From the IMG/VR virus record IMGVR_UViG_3300037067_022543: a stretch of DNA of 39,289 nt; one strand, given 5' to 3'. The notes beneath the pieces were generated by a model. That model searched no databases and was not told where the DNA came from. It saw nothing but the letters and a program-made list of their open reading frames with translations. A program made the translations under genes and the position numbers. Position 1 is the first letter of the stretch, and every line of letters starts with the position of its first letter. This document shows, piece after piece, positions 3,702 to 31,526 of the stretch. This DNA is from a virus.

Positions 3702-3738
3702 GTTTTATTATCCTTTATTTATATAATCATTACAAATG

Positions 3739-4130: not shown

Positions 4131-4475
4131 TTAACCATCACGCCATGCTTCTTCATAAGTACCTAGTTCGACACTCTCCCCTAAAATTTGTTCTATTTGT
4201 TTTTTTACATCCTCTTTAAATTCTTTACCTGTTTGATTATCCTTAACATCGCTCCATGAACGTCCCAAATAATATGTGTCTCCATATGGAACATGAAATG
4301 AAAGATTGAGTTTTTGCTTTGAAATTAATTCTTCGACTAGTTCATAAATACCACAATCTTCATCATAGTAGTTATTTTTTTTTAACTTTTCTATAATGTC
4401 ATCATCCAATATTGCCCCAAAAATCAAAAATGACGACGAACTCGAATTGGAAACGAAACCTTCTCTAATTTTCAT
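4131..4475 (-). CDS. member 3 of MKIREGFVSNSSSSSF-family (114 aa)
   Basis: N-term MKIREGFVSNSSSSSFLIFGA; AGGAG RBS. Confidence 0.8.
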   Translation of the reverse strand: MKIREGFVSNSSSSSFLIFGAILDDDIIEKLKKNNYYDEDCGIYELVEELISKQKLNLSFHVPYGDTYYLGRSWSDVKDNQTGKEFKEDVKKQIEQILGESVELGTYEEAWRDG

Positions 4476-5801: not shown

Positions 5802-6314
5802 TCATCCTTTTTGCAATATAAACTTTTGCTTGCTATATCGAATTTTAGACCAACCAGTTTCTTTCAATTTATTATACAACAATTTCTGTAACTTTAAAAT
5901 ATCTTCTTCGTTTTTAAAATAACTATCTTTAGCAGGATATAATTCAACCATCAAATAACATCCATTTTCTGCCACTCTATTTATTTCTCTACCCAAAAAA
6001 TTTCTTTCATATTTATCAAGAAACATAAATATATAATTGCACAAAATAAGACTGACAGACTTACTTTCTAAAGGAATAATATCTCTGCCTAAAACTGTTT
6101 TTAACCCAAAATCTCCTGCCATATCTAACGGGAAAATTTTACTAAAACCAATGGAATTTAGATAAATAGTATTTCTACCATTTCCGCATCCACAATCAAC
6201 TACAGGCTTTGATTTTATGGCATTAAAAAGACCTATGTTTTTTGCAAGATAAGGGCATGGGCTTTTTCTTCCACATCGAATGCACCATCTATTATTTAAA
6301 TATTTTCTGCTCAT
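5802..6314 (-). CDS. small class-I SAM-dependent methyltransferase with N-terminal Zn-ribbon
   Basis: motif I VVDCGCGNGRNTIYL; CIRCG...CPY at N-term. Confidence 0.7.
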   Translation of the reverse strand: MSRKYLNNRWCIRCGRKSPCPYLAKNIGLFNAIKSKPVVDCGCGNGRNTIYLNSIGFSKIFPLDMAGDFGLKTVLGRDIIPLESKSVSLILCNYIFMFLDKYERNFLGREINRVAENGCYLMVELYPAKDSYFKNEEDILKLQKLLYNKLKETGWSKIRYSKQKFILQKG

Positions 6315-8287: not shown

Positions 8288-8776
8288 TTATTTCTGGCAT
8301 TCTACAATAAATAACTTATCCTTAAAAAGTTTTGGAAGTCTGTTGATTATAGGATAATTTTTATTATATTTTTCTGTAATTGTTTTAGAATCTGTAGAAA
8401 TAATTTTAAAACCATTCTTCTCTAAAATTGGTACGATTTCTTCTAAATTAGTACTACCGATTATATTTCCTGTCTTGTGTTTAGTGCCAATTTTTCTCCA
8501 TTGATATTTTTTATCATTTTCTTCTTTTAGCAAAAAAATACCCCCGGGGCATAAAATCCTATATATTTCTTGTAAATTTCTATCGTAATCTTCTTTTTTG
8601 CAATACATTAAAACATGTTGAACAAGAACTAATTCTGCAGAACCATCTCCATAAGGAATTTTTGAATTCCATCCGTCCCAAGGCTTTACTCCAGAAAAAA
8701 GTTTCCATCTAGGATCTAGATTTTCAAATTCGTTCAATATATTATTCTCGCTACCAAGATTTATTTTTAAAAGCAT
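8288..8776 (-). CDS. methyltransferase-fold protein (degenerate motif I)
   Basis: ELVLVQHVLMY...RILCPGGIFLL resembles post-I/II region of class-I MTases. Confidence 0.45.
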   Translation of the reverse strand: MLLKINLGSENNILNEFENLDPRWKLFSGVKPWDGWNSKIPYGDGSAELVLVQHVLMYCKKEDYDRNLQEIYRILCPGGIFLLKEENDKKYQWRKIGTKHKTGNIIGSTNLEEIVPILEKNGFKIISTDSKTITEKYNKNYPIINRLPKLFKDKLFIVECQK

Positions 8777-8786
8777 AATCTATTCC

Positions 8787-9161
8787 TCATTCAAATATTT
8801 CTATGCCCTTAATCTCGCTAATTTTACCATTATACAAAAGCTGTTCTTGCACTTCTCCTTCTGAAGAAATATTTCCGACTAGAATAATCTTGCCTTGATT
8901 AATTGCTTTTTTCATCCTGCTATAATTTTTTTTCAAATATTCATCTTCTTTTAAGATTTTATCTATTTCTTCATTTTGTTTTAAACCATAATTACACTTA
9001 AAATAAAAATTTAGTTCATCTATTGTTTTTATATATTCTCTGGCATAACTGTCTAAATCTATTTCTAAAGAAAGTGTTACTTTTGTTTCTTTCTTGTTAT
9101 TAATTATTGCAAAAAAACTAGAACTGCTAGAGTTACTCACAAATCCGTTTCTAATTTTCAT
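8787..9161 (-). CDS. member 4 of MKIREGFVSNSSSSSF-family (124 aa)
   Basis: N-term MKIRNGFVSNSSSSSFFAIIN; AAAGGAA RBS. Confidence 0.8.
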   Translation of the reverse strand: MKIRNGFVSNSSSSSFFAIINNKKETKVTLSLEIDLDSYAREYIKTIDELNFYFKCNYGLKQNEEIDKILKEDEYLKKNYSRMKKAINQGKIILVGNISSEGEVQEQLLYNGKISEIKGIEIFE

Positions 9162-10519: not shown

Positions 10520-11629
10520 TTATACATCAAACGCAGGACATTTTCTACATCCAGAACATTTGTCTTTACTATTCAAGAGATTATTTCTCCATTGAACAAC
10601 TTTATCAGAAAACCACAAGTCTTTGAAAAAATCAAAACCATCTTTGGTCAAATCAATCCCATCTTGCCAATCTCCATAAAGACCGCAACTTCCTTCTGTA
10701 AAAGAGCATGGGTAGAATTTTCCTTCAACATTAATATATGAACTAAACAATCCACTTTCACAAGGCTCACTTCTAGTTAAAAATTCATTATAATATTTAT
10801 GCCCTTTAACAGAATTCAAAAACTTTGGAGCAGAACAGCTATCCATACCAAAACTAATATTATGTTCCAAGCAAAAATTAACTAAATATTTAAATTTATA
10901 TTCACTTAATGGAGTATATTTTTCTCCACGACCTTTTTTCTTTAAAGACAAAAGCACTATAGCATTCAACCCTTTTAAACGACTATCTGTAAGAATATCA
11001 TTAAGCGTTTCCTTACAGTCTTCAAAAGTTTGTTCTGATATCATGAAATGCATGTTTATTTGCTTCATGCCTAGATCGGTTAATCTTTTGATAGAATCAT
11101 AACAAACATTCTTATCTGCGTAACGAGACACTGCAACAGCACCAGCTATTTCTGAAAGCTTTTTAGCAGTATCATCAGAAATATTAGCAACAGTAATATT
11201 TGGAACAATTCCCTTACTTCTTGCATATTTCATCATATCAAATATTTCTGGATTAGATTGGCATTCGCTATCAGCCCCCAAAGCTATTTGTGTCAAAAAC
11301 AAAGGATATCTGTCTATAACTTTCTTAAACGTTTCCAAGCTCATATTTTTACCATTAGGAGTATTTGATTTGTAACAAAAAGAGCACGGTCTTTTAACTC
11401 CATTTTTATCAGGAATGCCATTACAAATAGTAGTAACTTCAATATCAAGTATTTCTGGAGCTGGGGCAAAATCAGGATCATCTTTTTCTGTTTTTCCACA
11501 TCTCTCAAAACGGCCACTTATCTTATTGAAGTTATAATTATAGTTTTCTGATCTAACCTTTTTCATAAAAGGATAATCATAAACAGTAAATTTAGATCCA
11601 TCAATAAAATTATATGTCTGTGTTTTCAT
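10520..11629 (-). CDS. radical SAM enzyme with C-terminal SPASM/twitch-like Cys cluster
   Basis: TTICNG-x9-RPCSFCY (Cx12Cx2C variant of CxxxCxxC), LGADSE (GGE-like), C-terminal C..C..CSGCRKCP. ORF-track start 11650 is TTG; first ATG at 11629. Confidence 0.6.
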   Translation of the reverse strand: MKTQTYNFIDGSKFTVYDYPFMKKVRSENYNYNFNKISGRFERCGKTEKDDPDFAPAPEILDIEVTTICNGIPDKNGVKRPCSFCYKSNTPNGKNMSLETFKKVIDRYPLFLTQIALGADSECQSNPEIFDMMKYARSKGIVPNITVANISDDTAKKLSEIAGAVAVSRYADKNVCYDSIKRLTDLGMKQINMHFMISEQTFEDCKETLNDILTDSRLKGLNAIVLLSLKKKGRGEKYTPLSEYKFKYLVNFCLEHNISFGMDSCSAPKFLNSVKGHKYYNEFLTRSEPCESGLFSSYINVEGKFYPCSFTEGSCGLYGDWQDGIDLTKDGFDFFKDLWFSDKVVQWRNNLLNSKDKCSGCRKCPAFDV

Positions 11630-11653
11630 AATTGTATATAAAATAATCAATAC

Positions 11654-12412
11654 TTAGTGATGACTAACGGTTATATGCGGTAGACTTTTAAATATGTCTC
11701 CATGTTCCATTGTACAGTAAAATTCTCCGTCATTATCGCTATACTCAAAAATACATATATGCCTACCTTTATTATCATCCATAAACTTTTTAGCGTCAAT
11801 ATTTGAAAGTTTCTTTCTTAAAGAATATTGTTTTTTCCAAATTTTGTTTTGTTCGTTAAAATATTTTGTTTTGAAATCTTTATATTCTTTATTTGTGTTA
11901 CGCCATTTGTTATACTTTTCATACCATTCATCTTGTTCTTTTTTAGAAAGTTCAGAATGGTTTTTGGGGCGTCCCATTCCATATTTATTAATAATTTCTT
12001 CTTCTTTTTTCCAATGACTTTCTGATAATTCATCATATTTAACAAAAAGTTTTGCTAATTCTTCAAGAATTTCCTCATCATTACCATAATATTTATCTTT
12101 ACCAACCCATCCATATTCCAAACATCTACTAAACATATTGTTGCTATGCCTTGTGTAATAATACCTATTTGAAAGTAATTCTGCTATTTTTTCAAGAGTT
12201 GCTTCTTTGTTTTTAATATTTCTACTAATATCATCAAAAACATTTTTAACAACATCTGATGTGGCAGCTCTATTGTCATAATAATTAATATTTTTATCAA
12301 GTTCCATGTGCATCATTTTACTTAAATCTTCTATTGATTCTGGATTTTTAGGGAAGGCAACAATAAAAGAAGAACTACTAGAATTACTTACAAATCCATT
12401 TCTAATTTTCAT
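11654..12412 (-). CDS. member 6 of MKIREGFVSNSSSSSF-family (252 aa, extra C-terminal domain)
   Basis: N-term MKIRNGFVSNSSSSSFIVAFP; AAAGGAG RBS. Confidence 0.8.
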   Translation of the reverse strand: MKIRNGFVSNSSSSSFIVAFPKNPESIEDLSKMMHMELDKNINYYDNRAATSDVVKNVFDDISRNIKNKEATLEKIAELLSNRYYYTRHSNNMFSRCLEYGWVGKDKYYGNDEEILEELAKLFVKYDELSESHWKKEEEIINKYGMGRPKNHSELSKKEQDEWYEKYNKWRNTNKEYKDFKTKYFNEQNKIWKKQYSLRKKLSNIDAKKFMDDNKGRHICIFEYSDNDGEFYCTMEHGDIFKSLPHITVSHH

Positions 12413-13260
12413 TTTTTCAACTCCTTTAAAAACTTGCGAAAACTACTTTTTGTTGGTTTATTTGTTTTTCCTTCTCCGGTAGGCATATGAGTTGGAAGAT
12501 CAGGAATACCTATTATCGCATCTGGATATAACTTTTTCATTTGTTCACGAAACGACTTTCTATCTAAAGATTCATTGGATTCTGGAGTTGAATCTGCATC
12601 TATTTTATTAATTTCTTCTTCCAAAACATGACATTTATAGGACTTATTAAAAAAAACTCCATTGGCATGAACAAACTTAATTCTTTGTTTTAATTCCTTT
12701 AATTTATCTTCTCCTTTTGCTTCTGATAACCTTACGATTCTAGCTATTTTATAATCATTATCTTTTCTTTCAAATTGGACAATGTAATTAGTATCAAATG
12801 AAAAAAACATAATAATTTCTTTCAATAAATCTCCCATACCTTCATTGAAATCATTGTGCATACTAGTGAAATAAGAAAACTCAATTCCATCTTTAGAAAA
12901 CTTTGTTTTGATTCCACTGTGCTTTAAAACAAACTTAACTAATTTCCCATTTGTTGAACATTTATCAAGATCATCAAGTTCTTTTTTACAACGTAAAACA
13001 TAATCATTATTAATCTTTTGCATAAACTTAAAAGTGCTATTTTTACATTCTTTAAAATAAGTCTTACTATATTTTTTATTATCTTCTATAGCTTTTTTAA
13101 TTCTATCTTTTATTTTACGATTAATAATTCTCTTGTTAAAATAATCGAACCAATAATTAGAAACCATTAGGTTCACAAAATCATTGAACTTTAAATCATT
13201 AACTCTAAAAAAATAACTACTGGAACTAGAATTGCTTACGAAACCTTCTCTAATTTTCAT
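12409..13260 (-). CDS. member 7 of MKIREGFVSNSSSSSF-family (about 283 aa)
   Basis: ORF track starts 12 codons upstream (13296); family consensus places start at internal ATG 13258-13260 (MKIREGFVSNSSSSSYFFRVN). Confidence 0.75.
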   Translation of the reverse strand: MKIREGFVSNSSSSSYFFRVNDLKFNDFVNLMVSNYWFDYFNKRIINRKIKDRIKKAIEDNKKYSKTYFKECKNSTFKFMQKINNDYVLRCKKELDDLDKCSTNGKLVKFVLKHSGIKTKFSKDGIEFSYFTSMHNDFNEGMGDLLKEIIMFFSFDTNYIVQFERKDNDYKIARIVRLSEAKGEDKLKELKQRIKFVHANGVFFNKSYKCHVLEEEINKIDADSTPESNESLDRKSFREQMKKLYPDAIIGIPDLPTHMPTGEGKTNKPTKSSFRKFLKELKK

Positions 13261-13270
13261 ATATTCGCTT

Positions 13271-13525
13271 TCAATTAAAAATGTATTTAATAACATCTGA
13301 TTTAGACAAATGAGATCTTAAACGACCTTCTCTGTTCTTGATAAGTTTATAACGGCCATTTCTTTTTTTAAAAACAAGATCTGCTCTAGCAAAGTGATTT
13401 TCACTTGAATCAGCTTTATACCAACGGCTGGCGCCATCTTTTCCAAAATTAAGAGAATATTCGTTAACATTATTAAGATCATCACAAATTATAACAACAG
13501 TTTTAGTTTTCATTTTATTTTTCAT
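13271..13525 (-). CDS. hypothetical protein
   Basis: 84-aa ORF. Confidence 0.5.
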   Translation of the reverse strand: MKNKMKTKTVVIICDDLNNVNEYSLNFGKDGASRWYKADSSENHFARADLVFKKRNGRYKLIKNREGRLRSHLSKSDVIKYIFN

Positions 13526-13569
13526 TTTTCTTCCCTTTTAAATGCAAAATATCATAAATAAAAGTATTG

Positions 13570-14154
13570 TCAACATTTATTTTTTTTATTTTTTATGCAA
13601 TCTAATCTTCTTTTTAATTCCTTTAATCTTGCATCTCTATTTTTTATTGAACCATTCCATGAAATTTCTTCAATAATGACATACAGAAATTCAACAAACA
13701 TTATCAATGGGTTAATCTTTGTCTTAATAACCTTTTTATTATCTAAATCATAATTAATCATTATATCTGAAATTTTTATTTTAAAATTTGCTATTTTATA
13801 TAATGGTGTAAAATCCATGGCATATTTTTCTACACCAGTTCCATTTTCTTTTCCTATCCCACAGAAACTCCATGTAATTTCTCTTTTATCATCCAAAGAA
13901 CCAATTTCGCTACACAACTCTAAGTGATCAAACTCAACATTATTTTTTATATCTTCATTTTCTTTATTAACTTCTTCTATATATTCTTCTAAATATTTGC
14001 ATTTAAAAATTTTCTTTAGGGTTTCAATTGATATTTTAGATCTTTTTATACAATTTAAAACATCTTTTAAAGTAAAAGATTGATGTATATCAACATACTG
14101 CATTAAATCGTCAAAATTAAACTTGAGATTTTTATTTATTATTATATTTTTCAT
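13570..14154 (-). CDS. hypothetical protein
   Basis: 194-aa ORF, ATG. Confidence 0.55.
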   Translation of the reverse strand: MKNIIINKNLKFNFDDLMQYVDIHQSFTLKDVLNCIKRSKISIETLKKIFKCKYLEEYIEEVNKENEDIKNNVEFDHLELCSEIGSLDDKREITWSFCGIGKENGTGVEKYAMDFTPLYKIANFKIKISDIMINYDLDNKKVIKTKINPLIMFVEFLYVIIEEISWNGSIKNRDARLKELKRRLDCIKNKKNKC

Positions 14155-16969: not shown

Positions 16970-17524
16970 TTAAAACATATTATTAATATTACCAGATTCA
17001 TAACCATTAAATATCTGAAATAGAATACTGGGAATATGTTGAGACATTTGAAAAATAGAATCTCCATCTTGCACTGTCTTGCAATTCGTAATAAGAATTC
17101 TATTGCCTTTTAAATCATAACCAAAGATCGCAAATGATTTGAGATATTCAGAAACCCTGCATTTTAACAAGTCTATTTCTTGTTCATTTAAGGGTTTTTG
17201 TTTAATTAAATCATTAATATAACTTTCTTGATCAGAAGTATTACTTTGATTGTTTATCGGATATTTATTTGTCAAATCAAACTTTTCAATAGGAGACTTT
17301 TTAGAATCACTTTCAACCATATCTTTAATTGATTTTCTTAAGTTTTCTAAAGTTTGTTGTTTAAACTTTCTTTTTGCTTCTGGACTCATTTTGTCAAATT
17401 CTTTGCAAACATCACTAATTATATCTTCTGCCATATTATTAACCGTGGAATTAGATGTTTTTATGGAGTCTGTTTTTGATTTGTTCTTTTTCATGCGTTT
17501 TTTATTTTTTAGTTCTTTATTCAT
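16970..17524 (-). CDS. hypothetical protein
   Basis: 184-aa ORF. Confidence 0.55.
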   Translation of the reverse strand: MNKELKNKKRMKKNKSKTDSIKTSNSTVNNMAEDIISDVCKEFDKMSPEAKRKFKQQTLENLRKSIKDMVESDSKKSPIEKFDLTNKYPINNQSNTSDQESYINDLIKQKPLNEQEIDLLKCRVSEYLKSFAIFGYDLKGNRILITNCKTVQDGDSIFQMSQHIPSILFQIFNGYESGNINNMF

Positions 17525-17602
17525 ATTTATTTATACAACAAAAAGATAATAAATCCATTTGTTTTTTATAAAAACTATTATTTAATAGTGTATTAAAAAA
17601 AA

Positions 17603-17695
17603 TGGAAGAGAGGAAGGGATTCGAACCCTTGGGGCCCCATTACGAGGCCCAATTGTTTAGCAAACAATCCCCATAAACCGCTCGGGCACCTCTCC
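17603..17695 (-). tRNA. tRNA-Ser(GCU), class II
   Basis: acceptor GGAGAGG/CCTCTCT, anticodon stem ATTGT/ACAAT loop TTGCTAA, long variable arm, T-loop TTCGAAT, encoded CCA. Confidence 0.85.
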
Positions 17696-17743
17696 ATTAT
17701 TATGCTTTGTCAAAATCGTACTAACTTTTTTATTTTATTAAAC

Positions 17744-17837
17744 TGGCAGAAGGATAGAGATTTGAACTCTAGTGACTCGTTGAAAAGTCCTCGTGATTTC
17801 CGATCACGTGCCATAAACCAGACTCGGCCATCCTTCT
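17744..17837 (-). tRNA. tRNA-Ser(GGA), class II
   Basis: acceptor AGAAGGA/TCCTTCT, D-stem GCC/GGC, anticodon stem CGTGA/TCACG loop TCGGAAA (unusual C33), long variable arm, CCA. Confidence 0.75.
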
Positions 17838-17844
17838 ATAAACC

Positions 17845-17936
17845 TGGCAGGAAGAGAGAGATTTGAACTCCCGGGACCCCTTTCGGAGTCCTATGCTTTT
17901 CAAGAGCATCGCCATAAGCCACTCGGCCATCTTCCC
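17845..17936 (-). tRNA. tRNA-Ser(UGA), class II
   Basis: acceptor GGGAAGA/TCTTCCT, anticodon stem ATGCT/AGCAT loop CTTGAAA, long variable arm, CCA. Confidence 0.8.
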
Positions 17937-17946
17937 TCAAAATTAC

Positions 17947-18035
17947 TGGAGGAAACGAAGGGACTTGAACCCCCAACTCCGTTTATAGGAGCACTAGTTT
18001 TCGAGACTAGCAGGCTACCATTACCTCACGCTTCC
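17947..18035 (-). tRNA. tRNA-Ser(CGA), class II
   Basis: acceptor GGAAGCG/CGTTTCC, D-stem AGG/CCT, anticodon stem CTAGT/ACTAG loop CTCGAAA, 19-nt variable arm, CCA. Confidence 0.8.
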
Positions 18036-18044
18036 ACTTAAAAT

Positions 18045-18130
18045 TGGTGTCGGTGATAGGAGTTGAACCTACACGAGATTTCCTCTGCGGATTTTGAATC
18101 CGCCGCGGCTTCCAATTACGCCACACCGAC
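18045..18130 (-). tRNA. tRNA-Leu(CAA), class II
   Basis: acceptor GTCGGTG/CACCGAC, anticodon stem GCGGA/TCCGC loop TTCAAAA, long variable arm, discriminator A, CCA. Confidence 0.8.
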
Positions 18131-18133
18131 ATT

Positions 18134-18361
18134 CTAATCTTTTCCTAAAATTTTTCTTTGAACCACATCTCCATAATCTTGATAATTTGTTTTTGGAGGA
18201 TCTTTTTGTTGAGAAGAAAAATTTAATAACGGAGCATCTTCGTCCTTATCTTGTTCTTCTTCCGCTTCTTGAGATATTTCCAAATTAGTTTTACTATTAT
18301 CTACTGTCACTGGTTTCCCAACTACTCCTTTACTTCTGTCTAATCTTTTTATCGGCTTCAT
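18134..18361 (-). CDS. small hypothetical protein embedded in tRNA island
   Basis: 75 aa; TTG start with AAGGA RBS 6 nt upstream. Confidence 0.5.
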   Translation of the reverse strand: MKPIKRLDRSKGVVGKPVTVDNSKTNLEISQEAEEEQDKDEDAPLLNFSSQQKDPPKTNYQDYGDVVQRKILGKD

Positions 18362-18374
18362 ATTTTATCCTTAA

Positions 18375-18464
18375 ATGGTGCTGATGGTGGGATTTGAACC
18401 CACACGGGACATTAAGCCAGTAGTACCTCAAACTACTCCCTGCTGCCAATTCGGGTACATCAGC
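18375..18464 (-). tRNA. tRNA-Leu(GAG), class II
   Basis: acceptor GCTGATG/CATCAGC, anticodon stem GTAGT/ACTAC loop TTGAGGT, 16-nt variable arm, discriminator A, CCA. Confidence 0.8.
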
Positions 18465-18475
18465 ATTTTATTAAA

Positions 18476-19384
18476 TCATACAATGTTTTCTTTTTTCCAT
18501 TGTATTCCCATTAATCTACACCTTTTTCTAACAGCATTATCACTTATATTAAACATTTTTCCTATTGAAGTCATGGGTTTAGATTCAACTAACTTTACCA
18601 ATTCTTCTTTTGAGATATGAAATTTTCTAGACCTCTCTATAGCCATTTGTTTAGATTCGTTTATTTTACTTCTCAAATTAGGTATTAATATGTGTTCTTC
18701 TCTGCATATTCTTTTTAATATTTTATAATTTACACCAATTTCAGAACATATTCTTTTAAACGAAACATTTTTTAATCTTTCTATTAAAATCTCCCTGTTC
18801 ATCCCAAAATCAATAAGATTTACTTTTTTAGTTTCCCAACAAGCCCTGCACCTTCCAATTTTGTTATTGTTAATCTTTTTTCCACAATTAATACAAATTG
18901 ATTTATTAATACTGTTTTTACCTATTAAATTTTTTCTACCGCAATAATTTTTTGTTTGGCTATGGCAGTTAGGACATAAAAATCTTAAATTTTCTATTCT
19001 ACTGTCTCTTTTATCTCCATTAATATGATCTAATTGCAAAACAAGTTTGTCACTATTCCATATATTTATTAGTCCACATTTTTGGCATTTGTATTCTATT
19101 AATTTGTTTTTTATAACTTTTTCTCTTAAATTAGATAACGATCTATCTACGCCCTTAATAAAATACTCATTTGTTGGAATTGCATTAACAGCTATGCTAC
19201 CACGATTCCACCCTTGACCTAGAAAATGGGATGTGTCAAAACCATTTTTAATAGCAATTCTTTTTATAGTATTCATGTTGCCACCAGCTGGTCTTAAACC
19301 TATAGTTTCACAAACTTTCCTCCACGATTTGTTATTTAGTATTGCATTTTTAACATCTTCTACCGTGTAATTTTTACTTGCCAT
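18476..19384 (-). CDS. HNH homing endonuclease inserted between tRNA genes
   Basis: LQLDHINGDKRDSRIENLRFLCPNCHS HNH core plus C-terminal DNA-binding region; flanked by tRNAs on both sides. Confidence 0.75.
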   Translation of the reverse strand: MASKNYTVEDVKNAILNNKSWRKVCETIGLRPAGGNMNTIKRIAIKNGFDTSHFLGQGWNRGSIAVNAIPTNEYFIKGVDRSLSNLREKVIKNKLIEYKCQKCGLINIWNSDKLVLQLDHINGDKRDSRIENLRFLCPNCHSQTKNYCGRKNLIGKNSINKSICINCGKKINNNKIGRCRACWETKKVNLIDFGMNREILIERLKNVSFKRICSEIGVNYKILKRICREEHILIPNLRSKINESKQMAIERSRKFHISKEELVKLVESKPMTSIGKMFNISDNAVRKRCRLMGIQWKKENIV

Positions 19385-19469
19385 ATTTCATACTCCTTTA
19401 TACTTTTAATATATCATTCGTATAAATATGGCACACTTCCTTTATTTTAATTATTCTCGTATGCCAAAA

Positions 19470-19554
19470 TGGTGGGACTGATAGGATTTGAACCTACACA
19501 GATTTACATCTATTACGGTCTAAACGCAAGAGTCTGCCGTTCCGCCACAAACCC
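19470..19554 (-). tRNA. tRNA-Leu(UAG)-like, irregular (possible diverged duplicate/pseudo-tRNA)
   Basis: anticodon stem TTGCG/CGTAA loop TTTAGAC, long variable arm, T-arm GTAGG TTCAAAT CCTAT, disc A, CCA; but acceptor GGGTTTG/CAGTCCC has a T:T mismatch and the D-stem pairs poorly. Confidence 0.5.
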
Positions 19555-19587
19555 GTTATATAAACTATTTTATACTATCTAAAAAAT

Positions 19588-19671
19588 TGGTGCGGGTAGA
19601 GGGATTTGAACCCCCACTCCTTACGGAATCAGATCCTAAGTCTGACGCGGCTTCCATTACGCCATACCCGC
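19588..19671 (-). tRNA. tRNA-Leu(UAG), class II
   Basis: acceptor GCGGGTA/TACCCGC, anticodon stem TCAGA/TCTGA loop CTTAGGA, 13-nt variable arm, disc A, CCA. Confidence 0.8.
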
Positions 19672-19682
19672 ATTACTAAAAT

Positions 19683-19767
19683 TGGTGGGCAAGACGGGAC
19701 TTGAACCCGTACGGTTTTACCCTGCAGATTTTAAGTCTGCCGCGGCTTCCAATTACGCCACTCGCCC
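19683..19767 (-). tRNA. tRNA-Leu(UAA), class II
   Basis: acceptor GGGCGAG/CTTGCCC, anticodon stem GCAGA/TCTGC loop CTTAAAA, long variable arm, disc A, CCA. Confidence 0.8.
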
Positions 19768-19782
19768 ATTTTTTATCATTAT

Positions 19783-19811
19783 TTTATACTACCTAAATAT
19801 TTATATATCAA
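19783..19811 (-). promoter_or_regulatory. sigma70-like promoter for the Leu-tRNA sub-cluster
   Basis: minus strand TTGATA-N17-TATAAA ending about 15 nt before the 5' end of tRNA-Leu(UAA). Confidence 0.4.
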
Positions 19812-19818
19812 AGAACAC

Positions 19819-19856
19819 AAAAAAAGCCCCAGAAACAACTCTTGGTTGCCTGGGGC
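19819..19856 (-). terminator. Rho-independent terminator
   Basis: minus strand GCCCCAG-N17-CTGGGGC (7-bp perfect GC stem) followed by TTTTTTT. Confidence 0.55.
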
Positions 19857-19910
19857 GAAAGAATCAGCTATTTCTAGCAAGACTCGTCTTCGCCCTCAAG
19901 CAAACTTGAG
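19853..19910 (-). promoter_or_regulatory. upstream hairpins mutually exclusive with the terminator (antiterminator-like)
   Basis: GGGCGAAGA-loop-TCTT(T)CGCCC shares its GCCCC 3' arm with the terminator 5' arm; additional CTCAAG-tttg-CTTGAG hairpin. Confidence 0.3.
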
Positions 19911-20016
19911 AGTGATAACGAACTCAGACTAGATAATAGAACTTTATTCATGTTATTATTATACTCCAATTTATTTTAAAATCCTTTTTTATTTTTAATT
20001 ATATAAAAAACAATGA

Positions 20017-20084
20017 TATAAGAATTGGGATTTGAACCCAAAGCTCCCATTTTAGGAGTGACCGTAATTGAAACGTTCTCTTAT
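20017..20084 (-). ncRNA. degenerate tRNA-like element
   Basis: acceptor ATAAGAG/TTCTTAT, canonical T-arm TTGGG TTCAAAT CCCAA, but D-loop lacks GG, anticodon stem only 4 bp with loop TAAAATG (no U33), no CCA. Confidence 0.35.
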
Positions 20085-20098
20085 ACCATCTAAATATT

Positions 20099-20359
20099 TT
20101 ACCAAATATTACATCTATCTTTATTAACTTTCTTACCAATTTCACCAACATTTCTCAATGCTACCTTAATGGAATTAATCTGTCTCCCGTTGAGATGAAT
20201 TTTAAAACCGTTAGATTCAATTACCAAAGACTTACCGTAACGCTTTAAATCGTTTTTATTAACTGGTCTAGAATAGGACAAATAAGTGTTACTGCCCTTA
20301 TTCCTAAACCTGATTTTCTTACAATTTGATCTTAATTTTTGATTGTTTTTTACTTTCAT
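20099..20359 (-). CDS. small basic hypothetical protein
   Basis: 86 aa, Lys/Arg-rich. Confidence 0.55.
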   Translation of the reverse strand: MKVKNNQKLRSNCKKIRFRNKGSNTYLSYSRPVNKNDLKRYGKSLVIESNGFKIHLNGRQINSIKVALRNVGEIGKKVNKDRCNIW

Positions 20360-20466
20360 AGTATTTGTCCTTTTGATTTACATTTATAACAGCTTTTTAA
20401 CGAATGTCAAGAACTTTATTTAAAAATTTTATATTATTTTGGAACAGCAAACAACTAATTAACACT

Positions 20467-20859
20467 TCAATTTAAAGTTATATACTTTCTTTCTTTAAAA
20501 GACTTAATTGTTTTTTGAAAATCATTTAACGAATTTTTCACTAAACTTCTAACAGCTTCTCTTGTAGACTTTACTGTATTTGATATTGCATAAACACCAG
20601 ATATAGCTACAAGACAAGAAATATTATTACACACAAGTCCAATTCCACTAATTACTCCTGCAAAATTACTAATATGTATACTCTTTTTACATATTCCACA
20701 TTCTGCAGGATATATCTTGCAATAACATTTATCATCACAAAATGATCTAATATTTCTAATATATCCTTTTTTATTAATAGTTTTCCCAAACGCCTTAAGA
20801 ACAAACTCTACTGCTGAATTGTCAAAAGTTATTTGGGATTTCATAGTAGTGCTTATCAT
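20467..20859 (-). CDS. Cys-rich protein with C-terminal hydrophobic segment
   Basis: 130 aa; CDDKCYCK..CGICKK then NFAGVISGIGLVCNNISCLVAISGVYAI. Confidence 0.55.
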   Translation of the reverse strand: MISTTMKSQITFDNSAVEFVLKAFGKTINKKGYIRNIRSFCDDKCYCKIYPAECGICKKSIHISNFAGVISGIGLVCNNISCLVAISGVYAISNTVKSTREAVRSLVKNSLNDFQKTIKSFKERKYITLN

Positions 20860-20860
20860 T

Positions 20861-21766
20861 TCAAGAATTTTTAGCAGCCAGATTTGCCTTAATCATATCT
20901 TCAAAAACATTCATCATTCCTTCAGGAGAATGTGGCATCATTATAACTGTATTCTTTGAATCTGCTCCTATCTTATTAAGAGTATCGAAATATTGAGTTA
21001 CTAAAACAAGATTCATAACTTCTGAAGTATCTGCTTTAGTTGCAGATTTAAAAGCTTCAACAGAGTCTTTCAAACCATTAATTATAGCTGTTCTTTGTTT
21101 GGCTATGCCTTCTCCCTGCAATCTTTTACTTTCAGATTCTGCTTCAGCTTTTTTAACAATTAAAATCTTTTCTGCTTCTCCGTTTGCTTTAGCAGCTTCT
21201 TGCAATCTTTGAGCTTCATTAATTTTATTCATTGCATCTTTAACCCTAGAATCTGGATCAACATCAGTAATAAGAGCTTTAATAATTTCAGTTCCATATT
21301 GAGCCATATTCTCGCTTAATTCTTTAGCTATAGCATTAGCAATATCATCTTTCTTTGCAAATACATCATCAAGTTTAAGTTTGGGAACTTCTGCTCTAAC
21401 AACGTCAAAAATATATGACGATACTTGTTTACTAAAATTAGTTAATTTGTAATAAATATCATATACCTTGCTTGGAATTGCTCTAAATTGTACTGATACT
21501 ATAATTTTAATAAAAACATCATCTTCTGTTTTCGTCTCAATTGGTACATCTAATTGTTGATCTTTTAGACTAGAATAACTAACAATTTTTTCAACAAAAG
21601 GTATTTTTAAATTTAATCCTGGATTTGCCATCCTATTAAATTTACCAAATCTTTCTATAATAGCTATAGTTTGTTGTCTTACAGTAAAAAGAGACATAAT
21701 AGCTAAAATTATACAAAACACAGCAAATATAGATAAAACAACAATCATAGCAATTCCTTCAATCAT
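20861..21766 (-). CDS. SPFH/band-7 (stomatin/prohibitin/flotillin-like) membrane protein
   Basis: N-terminal TM helix then IIERFGKFNRMANPGLNLKIPFVEKI and long coiled-coil C-terminus typical of SPFH. Confidence 0.85.
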   Translation of the reverse strand: MIEGIAMIVVLSIFAVFCIILAIMSLFTVRQQTIAIIERFGKFNRMANPGLNLKIPFVEKIVSYSSLKDQQLDVPIETKTEDDVFIKIIVSVQFRAIPSKVYDIYYKLTNFSKQVSSYIFDVVRAEVPKLKLDDVFAKKDDIANAIAKELSENMAQYGTEIIKALITDVDPDSRVKDAMNKINEAQRLQEAAKANGEAEKILIVKKAEAESESKRLQGEGIAKQRTAIINGLKDSVEAFKSATKADTSEVMNLVLVTQYFDTLNKIGADSKNTVIMMPHSPEGMMNVFEDMIKANLAAKNS

Positions 21767-21781
21767 TTTTTTTCTCCTTAA

Positions 21782-22066
21782 TTATTTATTTTTTTCTTTT
21801 CTAATTTCTTGTGCTTTTTTATAAACATCTTTAATCTCTATCTCTCTTTTGCCTTGTTTAACAAAAAACATTAGGGCATTAATCCCACAATTAACTCCAT
21901 CATCAAAAACTTTATCATAAACATTAGTTTTTAATAATAATTGCTGTTCAGGAGAACTAACTTTTTTGTTAAAGTTAATAGCAAAAATAATTCCTGCAAT
22001 ACCAAATGCCATCAAAATTAAAAAAACAAACAAAAGCAATTTACCACCTTGTGAATGATTAACCAT
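21782..22066 (-). CDS. NfeD-like short membrane protein (SPFH partner)
   Basis: TM segment LLLFVFLILMAFGIAGIIFAI plus C-terminal small beta-domain; ORF-track start 22132 is TTG; ATG at 22064-22066 carries strong AAAGGAG RBS. Confidence 0.55.
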   Translation of the reverse strand: MVNHSQGGKLLLFVFLILMAFGIAGIIFAINFNKKVSSPEQQLLLKTNVYDKVFDDGVNCGINALMFFVKQGKREIEIKDVYKKAQEIRKEKNK

Positions 22067-22115
22067 CGCGTCTCCTTTGATTAACATTATACAAAAAAAT
22101 AATATAAATAAAAAA

Positions 22116-22616
22116 TTATTTATAAGCGTCAATCATTAGCTTTTTAACTTCATCCATAACTTCTTTCATCCTTTTGGTCATAGACGGCTTAAAAGGCTTT
22201 CTCAAAGGAAACATATTAGCTTCTGCTGGAGTTCTGTTGTTTTTCTTTTTGTTACAATAAGAACAAGCGGTAGTCATATTTTCATACGTAGTTTTACCAC
22301 CTCGTGATTTTGGAAGAACATGATCTGTGGTCAAATCATTTTTATCAGTGATATGCTTTCCACAATATTGACAAATATAATCATCTCTTTCCCAGGTCAA
22401 TTTATTAGAATATTTCATTTTTCTATTATATGCTCTAACAAATCTAAATATTTTAATAATTAATGGGACTTGAATGATTTCAGAAACCGTATGAATAACA
22501 TCCTCTGCATATTTTACAACTTCTGCTTTTTTTTGTTCTATTAATGATAATGCTCTATTAAGAGAGCAAGAACTAATACATTCATAACCGCTATTTAAAA
22601 CATATACTCTATGCAT
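22116..22616 (-). CDS. HNH endonuclease (McrA-like)
   Basis: CQYCGKH...TTDHVLPKSRGG...NMTTACSYCNKKK; AAAGGT RBS. Confidence 0.75.
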   Translation of the reverse strand: MHRVYVLNSGYECISSCSLNRALSLIEQKKAEVVKYAEDVIHTVSEIIQVPLIIKIFRFVRAYNRKMKYSNKLTWERDDYICQYCGKHITDKNDLTTDHVLPKSRGGKTTYENMTTACSYCNKKKNNRTPAEANMFPLRKPFKPSMTKRMKEVMDEVKKLMIDAYK

Positions 22617-22820
22617 AACCTGTTTTACCTTTATATAAAAAAAATACCATTAGTCAAACCACCAAAAATGGCAAATAAGATCCTGTTGGAAATTATATGC
22701 CTGCAATGCAAGACCCGGATGTATACTGGTCATGCAGCAAACCATCTTTTTGTGTTTTAACTAACGGCAATATCGCATTCATCTTATTATACCTAATTTT
22801 TACATTTTTCCCTTTTAAAT

Positions 22821-23188
22821 TGGTGGACCCGGAGGGATTTGAACCCTCGTCTTGATAAATTTCAAAAATGGCATCTACATGTTTATATGATTTTACTATT
22901 TTAGGCAAACCATCAAGCCCACCAGAATCCTTTCTTCTGGTTAGTCAGCAAACGTCTTTCCGTTTCGCATTTGTCAGGGGTCTTATCTTCACCCATTGAA
23001 CTCTAGTGATCGTCACTACTCTAGGCTACCAGAGATATCTTGCCTATTTCGCGGACAGCTGGTTAAGCAGCCATCAAATAAGAAGCTTTGTCAGCTCTTA
23101 ATGTTTTTAGTGGATTCTTTACGGTGCCAACCACTATCACCTACATGCATCCATAATCTCTTCTTATCAATCGAAACCGGTCGGGCCC
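22821..23188 (-). ncRNA. ssrA: tmRNA (transfer-messenger RNA), tag reading frame ADKASYLMAA-stop
   Basis: 5' GGGCCCGACCGGTTTCGA...; 3' GGGTTCAAATCCCTCCGGGTCCACCA; acceptor GGGCCCG/CGGGTCC with G3:U70; PK1-like GGTTGGC..CGTAAA; frame GCT GAC AAA GCT TCT TAT TTG ATG GCT GCT TAA (cf. E. coli ANDENYALAA). Confidence 0.85.
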
Positions 23189-23211
23189 TTTCTATATTTA
23201 TAATACTTCAT

Positions 23212-23412
23212 TTACATATCAGAAACCAGTACCAACTCCAAAGCTTTCAAATGTCCTTCTGGAGTAGGATTGCCAGAAATATGAGTATGTCCAGTATACT
23301 TTTTTAAAAATTCAATTTTTGACAGCGTATCATTTTTAATCTTCTTTAAAGCATATAAAGAATTAATATATTTTCTTTCAATAGAACCAATTTTGACAAC
23401 GTTTTCTTTCAT
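23212..23412 (-). CDS. small hypothetical protein
   Basis: 66 aa; AGAGGAG RBS; ends 24 nt before tmRNA 5' end. Confidence 0.5.
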   Translation of the reverse strand: MKENVVKIGSIERKYINSLYALKKIKNDTLSKIEFLKKYTGHTHISGNPTPEGHLKALELVLVSDM

Positions 23413-23429
23413 TTTTAACTCCTCTATAA

Positions 23430-23717
23430 TTATTCTTTAATAAAAGTTTCCAATCCTTTTTCAAAAATCTTTTTAAAAACATAAACTCCCATTTGTTTAT
23501 TATCAAAACCTTCTGTTTCTAGAGAATCTATTATTTCACTAAAAGCTATTTTTATTGCTTTAATATGCTTTTCATCTGACAACTCTACTCTTTGTGCTAA
23601 AATTGTCAAGCTTTTAAATTCTAATTGTTGATCATATCTAACAGCGTCTATAATAGCATCCATTTTTTCTACATTTAATTCTAAATATGCACCATCTTTT
23701 CCAATTTCTATGCTCAT
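23430..23717 (-). CDS. hypothetical protein
   Basis: 95-aa ORF. Confidence 0.55.
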   Translation of the reverse strand: MSIEIGKDGAYLELNVEKMDAIIDAVRYDQQLEFKSLTILAQRVELSDEKHIKAIKIAFSEIIDSLETEGFDNKQMGVYVFKKIFEKGLETFIKE

Positions 23718-23947: not shown

Positions 23948-24718
23948 TTATTTCTCCTTGTTTCCAAATAGATTAGGGGGCATATTGTTAGCTATTCTAT
24001 TTTCTGATATTTTATGATATTCTTTTGATATTTCAGAACCAACATAATTTCTATTATTATTTAAGCAAGAAATTGCAGTAGTTCCTCCACCCATAAAAGG
24101 ATCGTAAACTAAGTCTCCTTCATATGAAAGTAATTTAATACACATATCTGGCAAATCTGTATGAAAATTTGCTTTTGTAATTTCTTGACTTTGAGTTCTT
24201 AATTTCCATATTCCGCTACATCCCATCATAAATTCGTCTTTAGAAATCTTGCTATTGCCTTCTTTAATCTTTTTCCATACATCTTTATATCCTACCATAA
24301 CAATCTCATAAGGATTATAAATATATGGAGATGATGGCTTCAACCAAGAACCCCATGCAGTATACTTAACTCTATGAGAATCAACCCAAACTGGAGAACC
24401 AAATATATTTATTCCAACTTTATTAAACAAATTATAAAACTCAGCATAAGGAGAAATTCTTTTTTTATTATATTCTATGCCCATTTCCAATAATATATTA
24501 AGGCATATTCTACCATCAGATTTTAGAACTCTTTTTATTTCTTTCAACCATTTTTCACACCAAGACAAATAATCTGACCAATCTTTATTATCATTATAAA
24601 TATCATATTTAATGCCACAATTATATGGAGGGCTTGTTACTACTAAATCTACAAAGTCATCAGGCATCTTTGACAAAGTAAGTAAACAGTCTTCGTTATA
24701 AATTTTATTAATTTCCAT
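23948..24718 (-). CDS. DNA methyltransferase (amino-MTase, beta-class: N4-C or N6-A)
   Basis: motif IV SPPY near N-term, motif I DPFMGGGTT near C-term. Confidence 0.8.
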   Translation of the reverse strand: MEINKIYNEDCLLTLSKMPDDFVDLVVTSPPYNCGIKYDIYNDNKDWSDYLSWCEKWLKEIKRVLKSDGRICLNILLEMGIEYNKKRISPYAEFYNLFNKVGINIFGSPVWVDSHRVKYTAWGSWLKPSSPYIYNPYEIVMVGYKDVWKKIKEGNSKISKDEFMMGCSGIWKLRTQSQEITKANFHTDLPDMCIKLLSYEGDLVYDPFMGGGTTAISCLNNNRNYVGSEISKEYHKISENRIANNMPPNLFGNKEK

Positions 24719-27763: not shown

Positions 27764-27996
27764 ATAATATCCAATGTATCAGTGGTTCTGTTAGCAACAA
27801 AACCAATTTTAGAATTATACTTCACGGCTGAAAACCTATAAGCGTTTTTTATAATTTCCTGATATTCTGGAGAAAAGTCTGTTATTTTTTTAGTTCTATC
27901 TAAAAAAACTGCATTAACATCATCCCAAAGCTCAATTTTGCCAGGATCATTATTACTAGGATCAGCAGGATCATCAGGAGAAATTGGATTTGCCAT
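27760..27996 (-). CDS. hypothetical protein
   Basis: 78-aa ORF. Confidence 0.45.
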
Positions 27997-28906
27997 ATTT
28001 TTTTAGTACTCCTATAATTACTTCCCTATCTTCTTTATCTATAATTACAGGAACATCATAAAATACCCTTGCTATAAAATCAGAATTATTAAAACCCTTG
28101 TTGCTTATATGATAAAATGCCCCATTCCCCTTACGTGAATCTAATTTAATTTCAACGCTTTCTTTATCTCCAAGTATGTGATGGGTAACGACATCTTCTC
28201 TTAAAATATTAATCATTGGAATATTTAAAAGACATATTATAGAACCATCATTTTGAACTAAATGATTATCCTCTTCTACTGGATAATCTATTTGAATATA
28301 TAAATCTCCTTCAGTATTATCAAAAGACAATATGTTGCCTTTTTTTTCTATTTTTATAAAAGATCTTTTTTTAATTCTTGGTGGTATATCAACAGATAAA
28401 GACTCTTTACTGAAAATAGTTTTAATTCCATATTTTAAATTATTGTCTTTTTTATAAATTTCTCTTTTATAAGAAATAGTCTTCTTGCATCCACAATATG
28501 CATCTTTTAAAGATATATTTAATCCTATTTTTATATCTTTTTGGATAGGATCTCTTGTCCCAAAACCCCCTCTACCAAAGTTAATAGTAAAACCACCAAA
28601 GTTTATCCCATTTCCATCAGAAGACGGTTTTCCAAAATCTGCCCAAAAAGATTCCGAAAAAGACTCATTAAAATCCATAAAATTTCTATCAAAAGGAGAT
28701 GGGTTATCATATCTTTTTCTTTTAGATTCATCTGATAAAACTTCGTAAGCTTCATTAATCTCCTTGAATTTATTTTCGTTTTCTTTTGTATTATTAACAT
28801 CAGGATGGTATTTAAAAGCTTTTTTTCTAAAAGCCTTCTTTATTTCTTCTTGAGTTGCTTTTTTATCTACATCAAGAATTTTATAATAATTTTTTGTTGT
28901 TTTCAT
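27974..28906 (-). CDS. J-domain (DnaJ-like) co-chaperone
   Basis: [32 protein letters not shown] (HPD), Gly/Phe-rich region [17 protein letters not shown]; no CxxCxGxG zinc finger. Confidence 0.8.
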
Positions 28907-31260: not shown

Positions 31261-31268
31261 GATTATTT

Positions 31269-31526
31269 TTATCCACAAAAATCATCTTTATCATCTTGTT
31301 CTTCTTTAAAATTAAGATAATTGACCATCTCTTTTATCTCTTTGTTCTCCATCATCTTTTCATCTTCTGGTATTTCTTGAGAAAAAGCAAATACAGAAAT
31401 AACAAGATTTTTTTCTTCATCTGTCATGTCTGGATATCTGGCAAAAATCATCTGATCATTATGTCTTCTGCCAAACAGCACTCTTCCTCTTTCGTCACAA
31501 ATATGCCACCTAAAACCTTCTTGCAT
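31269..31526 (-). CDS. hypothetical protein
   Basis: 85 aa, AAAGGA RBS. Confidence 0.5.
   Translation of the reverse strand: MQEGFRWHICDERGRVLFGRRHNDQMIFARYPDMTDEEKNLVISVFAFSQEIPEDEKMMENKEIKEMVNYLNFKEEQDDKDDFCG

Follow-up and report, generated by a model that had tools for sequence, protein, structure and literature searches.

Why phages carry tRNA genes has been debated for more than 50 years, and three main reasons are proposed: the phage may compensate for its codon usage, outlast the decay of host tRNAs or evade immunity aimed at tRNAs. In the T4 tRNA cluster with SegB and in the T5 tRNA region with its HNH nicking endonucleases, tandem tRNA genes on one strand of a large lytic-type phage stand among small open reading frames (ORFs) and homing endonucleases, and tRNAs of the T5 region counter tRNA-targeting defences (PMC11555353). 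Here we describe a tRNA island of the same layout in a 39,289-nucleotide (nt) stretch of viral DNA (IMG/VR record IMGVR_UViG_3300037067_022543; the whole stretch is called the window below). An HNH endonuclease gene stands between leucine (Leu) tRNA genes of the window, and in a 79% relative a PF11645 endonuclease lies beside the serine (Ser) tRNA gene Ser-GCU. Known phage arrays mix many amino acids, usually with one gene for each, whereas this island serves two amino acids, Leu and Ser, and has every isoacceptor of both; unlike those arrays, it is also fronted by a dedicated leader ORF and a terminator. Neither phage tRNA clusters nor leader-peptide attenuation is new in itself; what is new is their combination, together with the restriction to complete Leu and Ser sets.

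The region ahead of the tRNA genes recalls the enterobacterial attenuators (leuL, thrL, hisL, trpL, pheL and the pheST leader), which have the same kind of short ORF with regulatory codons matching the regulated product and the same alternative 1:2, 2:3 (antiterminator) and 3:4 (terminator plus U-tract) helices. Among these, thrL mixes two amino acids (Thr and Ile) and leuL employs rare codons. In the phage, by contrast, the genes regulated would be tRNA genes rather than biosynthetic or synthetase genes, and the run of regulatory codons is far longer (14 codons) and samples eight isoacceptors. Searches with the Rfam leader families (Leu_leader, Thr_leader, His_leader and Trp_leader) and with the T-box gave no match at E ≤ 1 on positions 17000–23500 and none at E ≤ 10 on positions 19800–20000. 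T-box riboswitches offer a functional analogy, as cis leaders whose terminator and antiterminator report the charging of a specific tRNA to genes of the same pathway; they bind uncharged tRNA directly, without translation, and carry a conserved T-box sequence, whereas in the phage leader, where none was detected, a ribosome would do the sensing.

On balance we lean towards reading the locus as a phage tRNA operon with complete Leu and Ser decoding capacity, controlled by a putative ribosome-mediated transcription attenuator that would respond to a shortage of charged Leu or Ser tRNA. If this is true, it would be the first known case of tRNA genes under a leader-peptide attenuator, and direct genomic evidence that a phage keeps watch on its decoding capacity and replenishes it when needed. 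Mini-ORFs with amino acid runs upstream of phage tRNA clusters could then become a guide to the purpose of those clusters.

Complete leucine and serine tRNA sets

ARAGORN recovered nine tRNA genes within exactly the outer coordinates, and with exactly the anticodons, that an earlier note on this DNA had read from the letters, all nine with an encoded CCA and all five Leu genes with the A73 discriminator (Table 1). That these are real tRNA genes is close to certain. Eight of them score 47.6–57.3 bits with the Rfam tRNA model RF00005, which has a gathering score of 29 bits; the second Leu-UAG copy (19470–19554), at 28.0 bits, lies just under it, does not fold freely into a cloverleaf and is divergent and possibly impaired. 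Among the Ser tRNAs, U73 stands in place of G73 in Ser-CGA and Ser-GCU, and C33 occurs in Ser-GGA at a position where U33 is near-universal in tRNAs. By standard wobble rules the eight anticodon species cover all six Leu and all six Ser codons, in agreement with the note.

The absence of class-I tRNAs from the island, which the note had also claimed, was borne out: run on the whole window, ARAGORN returned no differing anticodon and no tRNA beyond the nine, and none was found in a 3.4-kb extension (contig L002). Calls that appeared at lowered thresholds (10617–10707, 19666–19751 on the plus strand, 24018–24102 and 32687–32781) were rejected as noise, lying inside ORFs or antisense to a real tRNA. 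The note's further description of the set as the only two type-II (class-II) amino acid families is right for the window and the operon, and cannot be extended to the genome, which measures at least 103 kb. It also overlooks tRNA-Tyr, which in bacteria is class II as well; with tRNA-Tyr absent from the island, the set is only class II but not all of class II. Upstream of the leader lies a decayed tRNA-Leu(CAA)-like relic (20017–20102), which overlaps the end of an 86-amino-acid (aa) ORF and is absent from that place in the relative L040.

Nine genes drawn from about 43 bacterial anticodon species would all be Leu or Ser with a probability of about 8e-7. For comparison, a control phage array (L005) holds 13 tRNAs for 12 amino acids, its tRNA-Tyr being 85 nt long. 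With nine genes in 2.2 kb, the island has the several bona fide, tandem, same-strand tRNA genes of a tRNA cluster; the mixed specificity that is typical of phage clusters, although not obligatory, is absent, since only Leu and Ser are served. The island stays below the size of a tRNA array unit, for which at least 20 tRNA genes at a density of at least two per kb are required (PMC4758250). Its sequence was found base for base (100% identity) in two independent Logan assemblies (L001 and L003), and the upstream part of the window is 99.9% identical to a contig in ENA (L002).

One explanation for this composition is that we see part of an ordinary large-phage tRNA complement, spread over several clusters and supporting translation in general, in which genes that were duplicated locally and mutated in the anticodon happened to pile up here as Leu and Ser genes. 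A 103,289-bp contig has proteins identical to those of the window, so over half of the genome, at least 60%, lies outside the window; the sequence covered, 39.3 kb of window plus the 3.4-kb extension, comes to about 43 kb. Huge phages carry up to 67 tRNAs together with a transfer-messenger RNA (tmRNA) (PMC7162821). Leu-UAA and Leu-CAA share an identical 23-nt stretch (positions 7–29, spanning the D arm) and Ser-UGA and Ser-GGA are 71% identical, both consistent with duplication in situ, and a tRNA-like 5' half that follows the leader in L040 has the loop CUCAU and may be neither Leu nor Ser. We nevertheless consider this explanation rather unlikely. Nine successive genes for two amino acids with full isoacceptor sets are improbable at random and unlike the mixed array of L005, no other tRNA occurs in the window or its extension, and the Leu/Ser-specific leader marks a discrete Leu/Ser unit whatever else the genome holds.

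Related phages provide evidence that at least one of these genes is under selection. In a 79% relative (L046/L047) and a 54% relative (L048/L049), Ser-GCU stands directly upstream of the homolog of a 184-aa gene, as it does in the window. The three Ser-GCU orthologs are only 61–69% identical, and 16 of 29 base pairs, including pairs of the long variable arm, are preserved by changes on both sides. Such compensatory changes indicate selection for a working tRNA at a conserved position, and the alignments are thus strong evidence that a functional tRNA-Ser(GCU) is maintained there. In the 79% relative (L046, 3–284), an ORF that runs into the start of the Ser-GCU gene and stops there encodes the C-terminal portion of a PD-(D/E)XK endonuclease (Pfam PF11645, E=1e-10); this endonuclease differs from the HNH protein of the window.

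The Leu genes point to exchange between phages. Their 18-nt D-arm stretch, GGCGTAATTGGAAGCCGC, had six chance matches in 185,579 species genomes and none in a tRNA gene. The tandem of Leu-UAA and Leu-UAG (19588–19767, minus strand) is 74% identical to a tandem of Leu-CAA and Leu-UAA in the Aeromonas T4-like phages phiAS5 and phiWae14 (L056, 4001–4175). The two tandems have nearly the same unusual D arm, and their second members combine a common acceptor stem with different anticodons, which suggests a phage-borne tRNA-Leu lineage whose genes circulate among phages and switch anticodon. Recognition by the leucyl- and seryl-tRNA synthetases does not involve the anticodon; a point mutation there can retarget a duplicated gene, and full isoacceptor sets are therefore easy to build. 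This evolvability probably explains part of why the Leu and Ser families could be completed.

The leader mini-ORF and its predicted attenuator

Between the 86-aa ORF (20359–20099) and the first tRNA gene lies a mini-ORF of 25 codons, of which codons 5–18 (19939–19898) are 14 consecutive Leu or Ser codons: CTA TTA TCT AGT CTG AGT TCG TTA TCA CTC TCA AGT TTG CTT. No other Leu/Ser run in the six frames of the window is as long, and 200 shuffles gave longest runs that averaged 6.8 codons and never exceeded 10. The 14 codons include all six Leu codons as well as TCT, TCA, TCG and AGT, and so offer a cognate codon for eight of eight island anticodons. Under the phage's own codon usage, a leader that covers all eight anticodon species has P ~0.04, one with all six Leu codons P ~0.002, and one with three codons from the class used at 2–3% P ~0.013.

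A homologous 25-codon ORF, MNKLLSSSLSSSLLLGSPEGMNGSI, is present in L040, a relative with 74% RecJ identity (Logan SRR30949871), within a leader segment that is 76% identical to that of the window over 185 nt (blastn). The L040 leader also covers all eight anticodon species, TCG and CTC included. Of eight codons that changed between the two leaders, six are still Leu or Ser codons, several through swaps of Leu for Ser or the reverse (P ~0.05), and the C-terminal residues are not conserved. Judging from this pair, what is conserved is codon class and ORF length, not the sequence of the peptide. In L012, which has no island at the syntenic site, there is no Leu/Ser-run ORF either. Upstream of the leader, a region nearly identical in the window and L040 (19952–19995) is a candidate promoter and/or ribosome-binding site.

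Both leader RNAs are predicted to be strongly structured (window, -51.1 kcal/mol, z = -5.2; L040, -55.1 kcal/mol, z = -7.9, against shuffles). In each, the Leu/Ser run and the 3' half of the ORF form a long hairpin, which is followed by a terminator with its U-tract, the L040 counterpart being a hairpin of 16–17 bp with U6. The first feature past the terminator is a tRNA gene in the window and a tRNA-like gene in L040, with no ORF between. To mimic a stalled ribosome, we masked the first 30–48 nt of the leader and cut the nascent transcript before the 3' arm of the terminator. In silico, masks from nt 1 to nt 30–48 gave an antiterminator of -27 to -32 kcal/mol on the nascent transcript of both leaders. 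The helices differ in sequence (GAGGGCGAAGA:UCUUUCGCCCC in the window, GCCUGAGGG:CCCUCAGGC in L040), and both engage the 5' arm of the terminator. When nt 1–63 or more were masked, as by a ribosome at the stop codon, the antiterminator was lost and the terminator formed. In the window the switch is seen even in the full-length equilibrium fold, with masks 1–45 and 1–51. The modelled locus thus has an ORF of regulatory codons, an intrinsic terminator before the genes and a mutually exclusive antiterminator, and we think it reasonably probable that the leader-peptide attenuator is real.

In the mechanism that we propose, transcription would start upstream of the leader, whose translation would be set by the supply of charged tRNA at codons 5–18. 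With charged Leu- and Ser-tRNA plentiful, the ribosome would reach the stop codon and cover segment 2, allowing the terminator hairpin to form and halting RNA polymerase about 50 nt before the first tRNA. With any charged Leu or Ser tRNA scarce, the ribosome would stall in the run, segment 2 would pair with the 5' arm of the terminator as antiterminator, and polymerase would enter the tRNA genes. Their products, presumably charged by host synthetases, would relieve the Leu or Ser shortage, and the whole would act as a homeostatic device. Such a module would be most useful when host tRNAs are lost during infection, be it through shut-off, degradation or a tRNA-targeting defence.

Several observations weigh against this proposal. 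The case for the attenuator is wholly computational and uses two leader sequences, and a full-text literature search found no precedent for a leader-peptide attenuator ahead of tRNA genes, which is absence of evidence and not proof. A GGAG lies 12 nt from the leader ATG, compared with 5–9 nt as usual in this genome, and leader initiation would have to be leaderless or make do with a weak Shine–Dalgarno (SD) sequence; a TATAAT six nt upstream of the ATG would permit a leaderless start, and 24 of 58 ATG-initiated ORFs in the window have no SD-like 4-mer within 22 nt upstream. The equilibrium fold of L040 retains the terminator under every mask, and there the antiterminator wins only in the co-transcriptional (truncated) model; in the trp attenuator, too, the terminator is the more stable helix. 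The last Leu/Ser codons, including the only TTG of the window leader, lie close to segment 2, so in the simple model a ribosome stalled there would mask the antiterminator. Leu-UAA (on the side facing the terminator), the second Leu-UAG and Ser-GCU are preceded by elements resembling a -10 box, so some of the island genes may be transcribed without read-through. The L040 island seems to open with a different, interrupted tRNA-like gene, and other tRNA clusters may exist beyond the roughly 43 kb covered of a genome of at least 103 kb.

Some of these points could also mean that the mini-ORF and hairpins form an independent small gene, encoding a Leu/Ser-rich peptide or a small RNA (sRNA) with its own terminator, and that the tRNAs have their own promoters. 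We find this possible but doubtful. The -10-like TAGTATAAAAT elements before Leu-UAA and the second Leu-UAG would fit it, as would the -10-like box close ahead of every Ser-GCU ortholog and the poor SD spacing at the mini-ORF, and very strong structure is also typical of sRNAs and type I toxin mRNAs. A gene selected for its peptide, however, sits badly with a peptide that is unconserved (Leu/Ser swaps and another C terminus) while Leu/Ser class and ORF length are kept, and with rare codons that are over-represented and sample all eight island anticodons. In both genomes, helices that exclude one another share the terminator arm, and no Rfam sRNA or toxin family came near its threshold. As for the promoters, the window shows no enrichment of the TAGTATAAAAT motif, and the stretch from the terminator to the first tRNA-like gene of L040 has no promoter comparable to it. 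A consensus promoter and terminator scan of the island was uninformative, returning fewer promoter-like sites than shuffles did and missing the leader terminator.

Several ORF starts of the window, among them those of the leader and of the 184-aa ORF, have a TATAA(T/A) box 5–6 nt upstream and share the start ATGAATAAAG, which hints at leaderless or SD-independent initiation at these genes.

Table 1. Positions of the island, its leader and other features of the window (U, C, A and G numbers refer to tRNA positions)
Feature	Position	Strand	Description and evidence
tRNA-Ser(GCU)	17603–17695	-	93 nt, long variable arm, G1.U72, U73, CCA; last island gene; ARAGORN, Rfam 51.1 bits
tRNA-Ser(GGA)	17744–17837	-	94 nt, A1-U72, G73, C33, CCA; anticodon loop UCGGAAA; ARAGORN, Rfam 47.6 bits
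tRNA-Ser(UGA)	17845–17936	-	92 nt, G73, CCA; ARAGORN, Rfam 52.5 bits
tRNA-Ser(CGA)	17947–18035	-	89 nt, U73, 4-bp D stem, CCA; reads TCG; ARAGORN, Rfam 51.8 bits
tRNA-Leu(CAA)	18045–18130	-	86 nt, A73, CCA; ARAGORN, Rfam 52.8 bits
75-aa ORF between tRNA genes	18134–18361	-	ORF list; no Pfam or PHROG match
tRNA-Leu(GAG)	18376–18464	-	89 nt, A73, CCA; ARAGORN, Rfam 51.0 bits
Free-standing HNH homing endonuclease, 302 aa	18476–19384	-	PHROG phrog_10822 'HNH endonuclease', E=2e-46; Pfam HNH
tRNA-Leu(UAG), second copy	19470–19554	-	A73, CCA, U4.U69, weak D stem; ARAGORN, Rfam 28.0 bits
tRNA-Leu(UAG)	19588–19671	-	84 nt, A73, CCA; ARAGORN, Rfam 57.3 bits
tRNA-Leu(UAA)	19683–19767	-	85 nt, A73, CCA; first island gene; ARAGORN, Rfam 55.0 bits
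Intrinsic terminator	19819–19856	-	12-bp G+C-rich hairpin, 5-nt loop, U7; ~50 nt before first tRNA; minimum free energy folds; hairpin alone -18.6 kcal/mol
Predicted antiterminator	19846–19903	-	Leader nt 49–66 pair with nt 90–106, sequestering terminator 5' arm; -31.6 kcal/mol; constrained folding
Leader mini-ORF	19874–19951	-	25 codons plus stop, MNKVLLSSLSSLSLSSLLEGEDESC; 105 nt upstream of first tRNA
Conserved region upstream of leader	19952–19995	-	AAAAAAGGATTTT..AAATTGGAGTATAAT..; nearly identical in window and L040 (alignment)
Decayed class-II tRNA-Leu(CAA)-like relic	20017–20102	-	No CCA, weak acceptor stem; ARAGORN at lowered thresholds only; Rfam 21.6 bits, E=0.66
HflK-like SPFH gene	20861–21766	-	
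tmRNA	22821–23188	-	Tag ADKASYLMAA; ARAGORN, Rfam 108 bits
DnaJ gene	27974–28906	-	
ClpB/ClpA-like ATPase	28945–31278	-	Single ORF, 777 aa
MKIR[EN]GFVSNSSSSSF paralogs (five)	11654–12412, 12409–13296, 3739–4113, 8787–9161, 4131–4475	-	Sole match phrog_7397
Radical SAM/SPASM gene	10520–11650	-	

Possible uses of a leucine and serine supply

The earlier note had offered three uses for the island, and codon usage over 64 window ORFs bears on the first of them, compensation for AT-biased Leu and Ser codons. Here an AT-rich phage (29% G+C) would supplement a host poor in tRNAs for its preferred codons. TTA does make up 48% of Leu codons, TCT, TCA and AGT together 84% of Ser codons, and Leu-UAA is a common phage tRNA. 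The island, however, also has tRNAs for rare codons, TCG (2% of Ser codons), CTC (2% of Leu codons) and CTG (3% of Leu codons), and commoner, equally AT-skewed families go without. Leu (7.3% of residues) and Ser (7.1%) rank behind Lys (11.4%), Ile (9.4%) and Asn (7.8%), none of which has a tRNA in the window, and AGA accounts for 69% of Arg codons with no Arg tRNA there. The comparison covers usage on the phage side only. We regard codon compensation as very unlikely. A second proposal of the note, that the island services a Ser-rich motif family, is not supported by the numbers. The family meant is probably the set of five paralogous ORFs that start with the near-identical motif MKIR[EN]GFVSNSSSSSF (Table 1); they hold about 30 Ser codons in total, a negligible demand. 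Two of the paralogs lie directly upstream of the radical SAM/SPASM gene, which is common to RB16-group T4-like phages.

A use outside translation, with Leu- and Ser-tRNA as aminoacyl donors for the modification of DNA, cell wall or peptides, seems to us highly improbable. Mom with Gly-tRNA is an example of such donor use, and the proteins of the window include three that resemble DNA methylases, one that resembles thymidylate synthase and a radical SAM protein. A precedent is the aminoacyl-tRNA-dependent DNA hypermodification carried out by a phage enzyme (PMC13219725). Donor use would not require eight anticodons covering every codon, though, and no GNAT- or Fem-type aminoacyl-transferase was detected in the window. 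Two ORFs with weak PHROG matches to 'tRNA methyltransferase' (8288–8776 and 5802–6314) were set aside as generic class-I SAM methyltransferases.

The remaining proposal of the note, replacement of host tRNAs that are depleted or cleaved, fits best of the three, in view of the complete set and the putative attenuator upstream, and its weak side is the nuclease. In one version, a host or competing element would destroy class-II Leu and Ser tRNAs and the phage would supply resistant ones; this is a candidate trigger for the proposed attenuator rather than a strict alternative to it, and as such we judge it unlikely. Models for counter-defence by tRNA are T5 tRNA-Tyr against the PtuAB of retron-Eco7 and tRNA-Lys against PrrC and PARIS. 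Phage tRNAs rescue infection from PtuAB and PrrC (PMC11555353), VapC toxins of M. tuberculosis cut Ser(GGA/UGA/CGA) anticodons (PMC10264068), and a low level of host tRNA-Leu(UAA) alone can give phage resistance (PMC11726456). Type II (Leu and Ser) tRNAs are the selective targets of cleavage by mammalian SLFN11 and SLFN14, and bacteria have Schlafen nucleases that act as antiphage effectors (PMC13056530, PMC13462974). An isoacceptor set that is complete independently of codon usage would suit a role in counter-defence, and the unusual C33 of Ser-GGA, the U73 of two Ser tRNAs and an 18-nt Leu D-arm stretch seen in no tRNA gene of the species genomes are indirect hints of the same kind.

Other facts count against counter-defence. 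We know of no class-II-specific bacterial tRNA nuclease, and class-II tRNA-Tyr is not supplied by the island. Of two characterised bacterial Schlafens, one cuts Lys, Met, Ala and other tRNAs and one the T loop of all tRNAs (PMC13056530, PMC13462974). Differences in the anticodon loops can be scored only against host tRNAs. SLFN11 and SLFN14 provide the only known immune mechanism that singles out Leu and Ser tRNAs through class-II architecture, and the parallel is one of analogy only, as the characterised bacterial Schlafens are not type-II selective and no such nuclease is encoded in or linked to the window. The restriction of the island to the Leu and Ser class-II families would also point to a specific vulnerability in the host, parallel to type II cleavage by mammalian Schlafens. 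In its most specific form, which we hold to be a long shot, Leu and Ser tRNA depletion would be recurrent and specific in infections by this lineage, caused by a bacterial counterpart of SLFN11 or by shut-off that the phage itself inflicts, and the leader would sample eight isoacceptors and switch on resistant replacements solely on failure of one of the eight.

Genomic setting and related phages

To judge from its gene content, the window is probably an early or auxiliary region of a large uncultured phage. All of its genes are on the minus strand, and its one-strand gene layout, numerous small ORFs, homing endonucleases and PHROG matches (phrog_10822 among them) would fit a phage; structural genes (capsid, portal and terminase) were found neither in the window nor in the fetched relatives. 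Genes of DNA metabolism encode a DnaB-type helicase, a primase zinc-finger protein, RecJ and the thymidylate-synthase-like protein, the three methylase-like proteins are of the N6/N4 type, and proteostasis is represented by a ClpB/ClpA-like ATPase, DnaJ and an HflK-like SPFH protein. Two HNH endonucleases, a phosphoribosyltransferase, a DUF4419 protein and the radical SAM/SPASM protein, which is 48% identical to its counterpart in RB16-group T4-like phages, are also encoded. The ClpB/ClpA-like ATPase, a single ORF in the window, is split into two genes (352 and 412 aa) at 11470–13784 of the otherwise 99.9% identical L002; a frameshift, a difference between strains or a faulty assembly could account for the split.

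Relatives of the lineage were not found among GenBank phages (megablast, tblastn with DnaB and blastn with the leader) or in IMG/VR (profiles of ClpB, radical SAM, RecJ and the 184-aa family; tRNA and leader patterns), where the sole match was an unrelated RecJ at 40%, and a GTDB scan of 185,579 species genomes with the 184-aa family gave no match. Searches anchored on RecJ and on the 184-aa gene that directly follows the island recovered fragments of related phages. Contigs of relatives end inside the island, and its complete composition was read in the window only. The gene order RecJ, 95-aa gene, tmRNA and HNH is kept in all recovered relatives. The syntenic interval of L012, the most distant relative (RecJ 54%), is filled with densely packed ORFs and no tRNA, which makes the island an accessory module of part of the lineage. 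In L041, a 72% relative, an IS200/IS605-type pair of TnpA and TnpB (Cas12f-like) and a LAGLIDADG endonuclease lie beside RecJ (42–1513 and 2772–3854). In L040 (9826–10263), a class-II-like tRNA 5' half, GCCTGGATGATGGAATGGCAGACATAACGGACTCAT, comes directly after the leader and terminator and runs into more than 400 nt of ORF-free, G+C-richer, highly structured RNA that continues to the contig end. This may be an intron-interrupted tRNA; a search for group I or other introns in the structured RNA gave no Rfam match even at E ≤ 10.

Huge phages likewise carry tRNAs distinct from those of the host, tmRNA and chaperone or protease genes, whereas no amino-acid-restricted, leader-controlled tRNA operon is described among them (PMC7162821). 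In the window, the HflK-like SPFH, DnaJ and Clp-type ATPase genes cluster with the tmRNA and the tRNAs (Table 1), a neighbourhood of proteostasis and ribosome rescue that would be in keeping with a general task of handling stalled translation. The window showed no SmpB gene. The SPFH gene and an adjacent 130-aa gene are missing from L040. The tmRNA lies downstream of RecJ in every relative found (including L007, L009, L010, L012, L040 and L041), and all tags of the lineage terminate in ..LMAA or ..KMAA, compared with the usual ..LAA.

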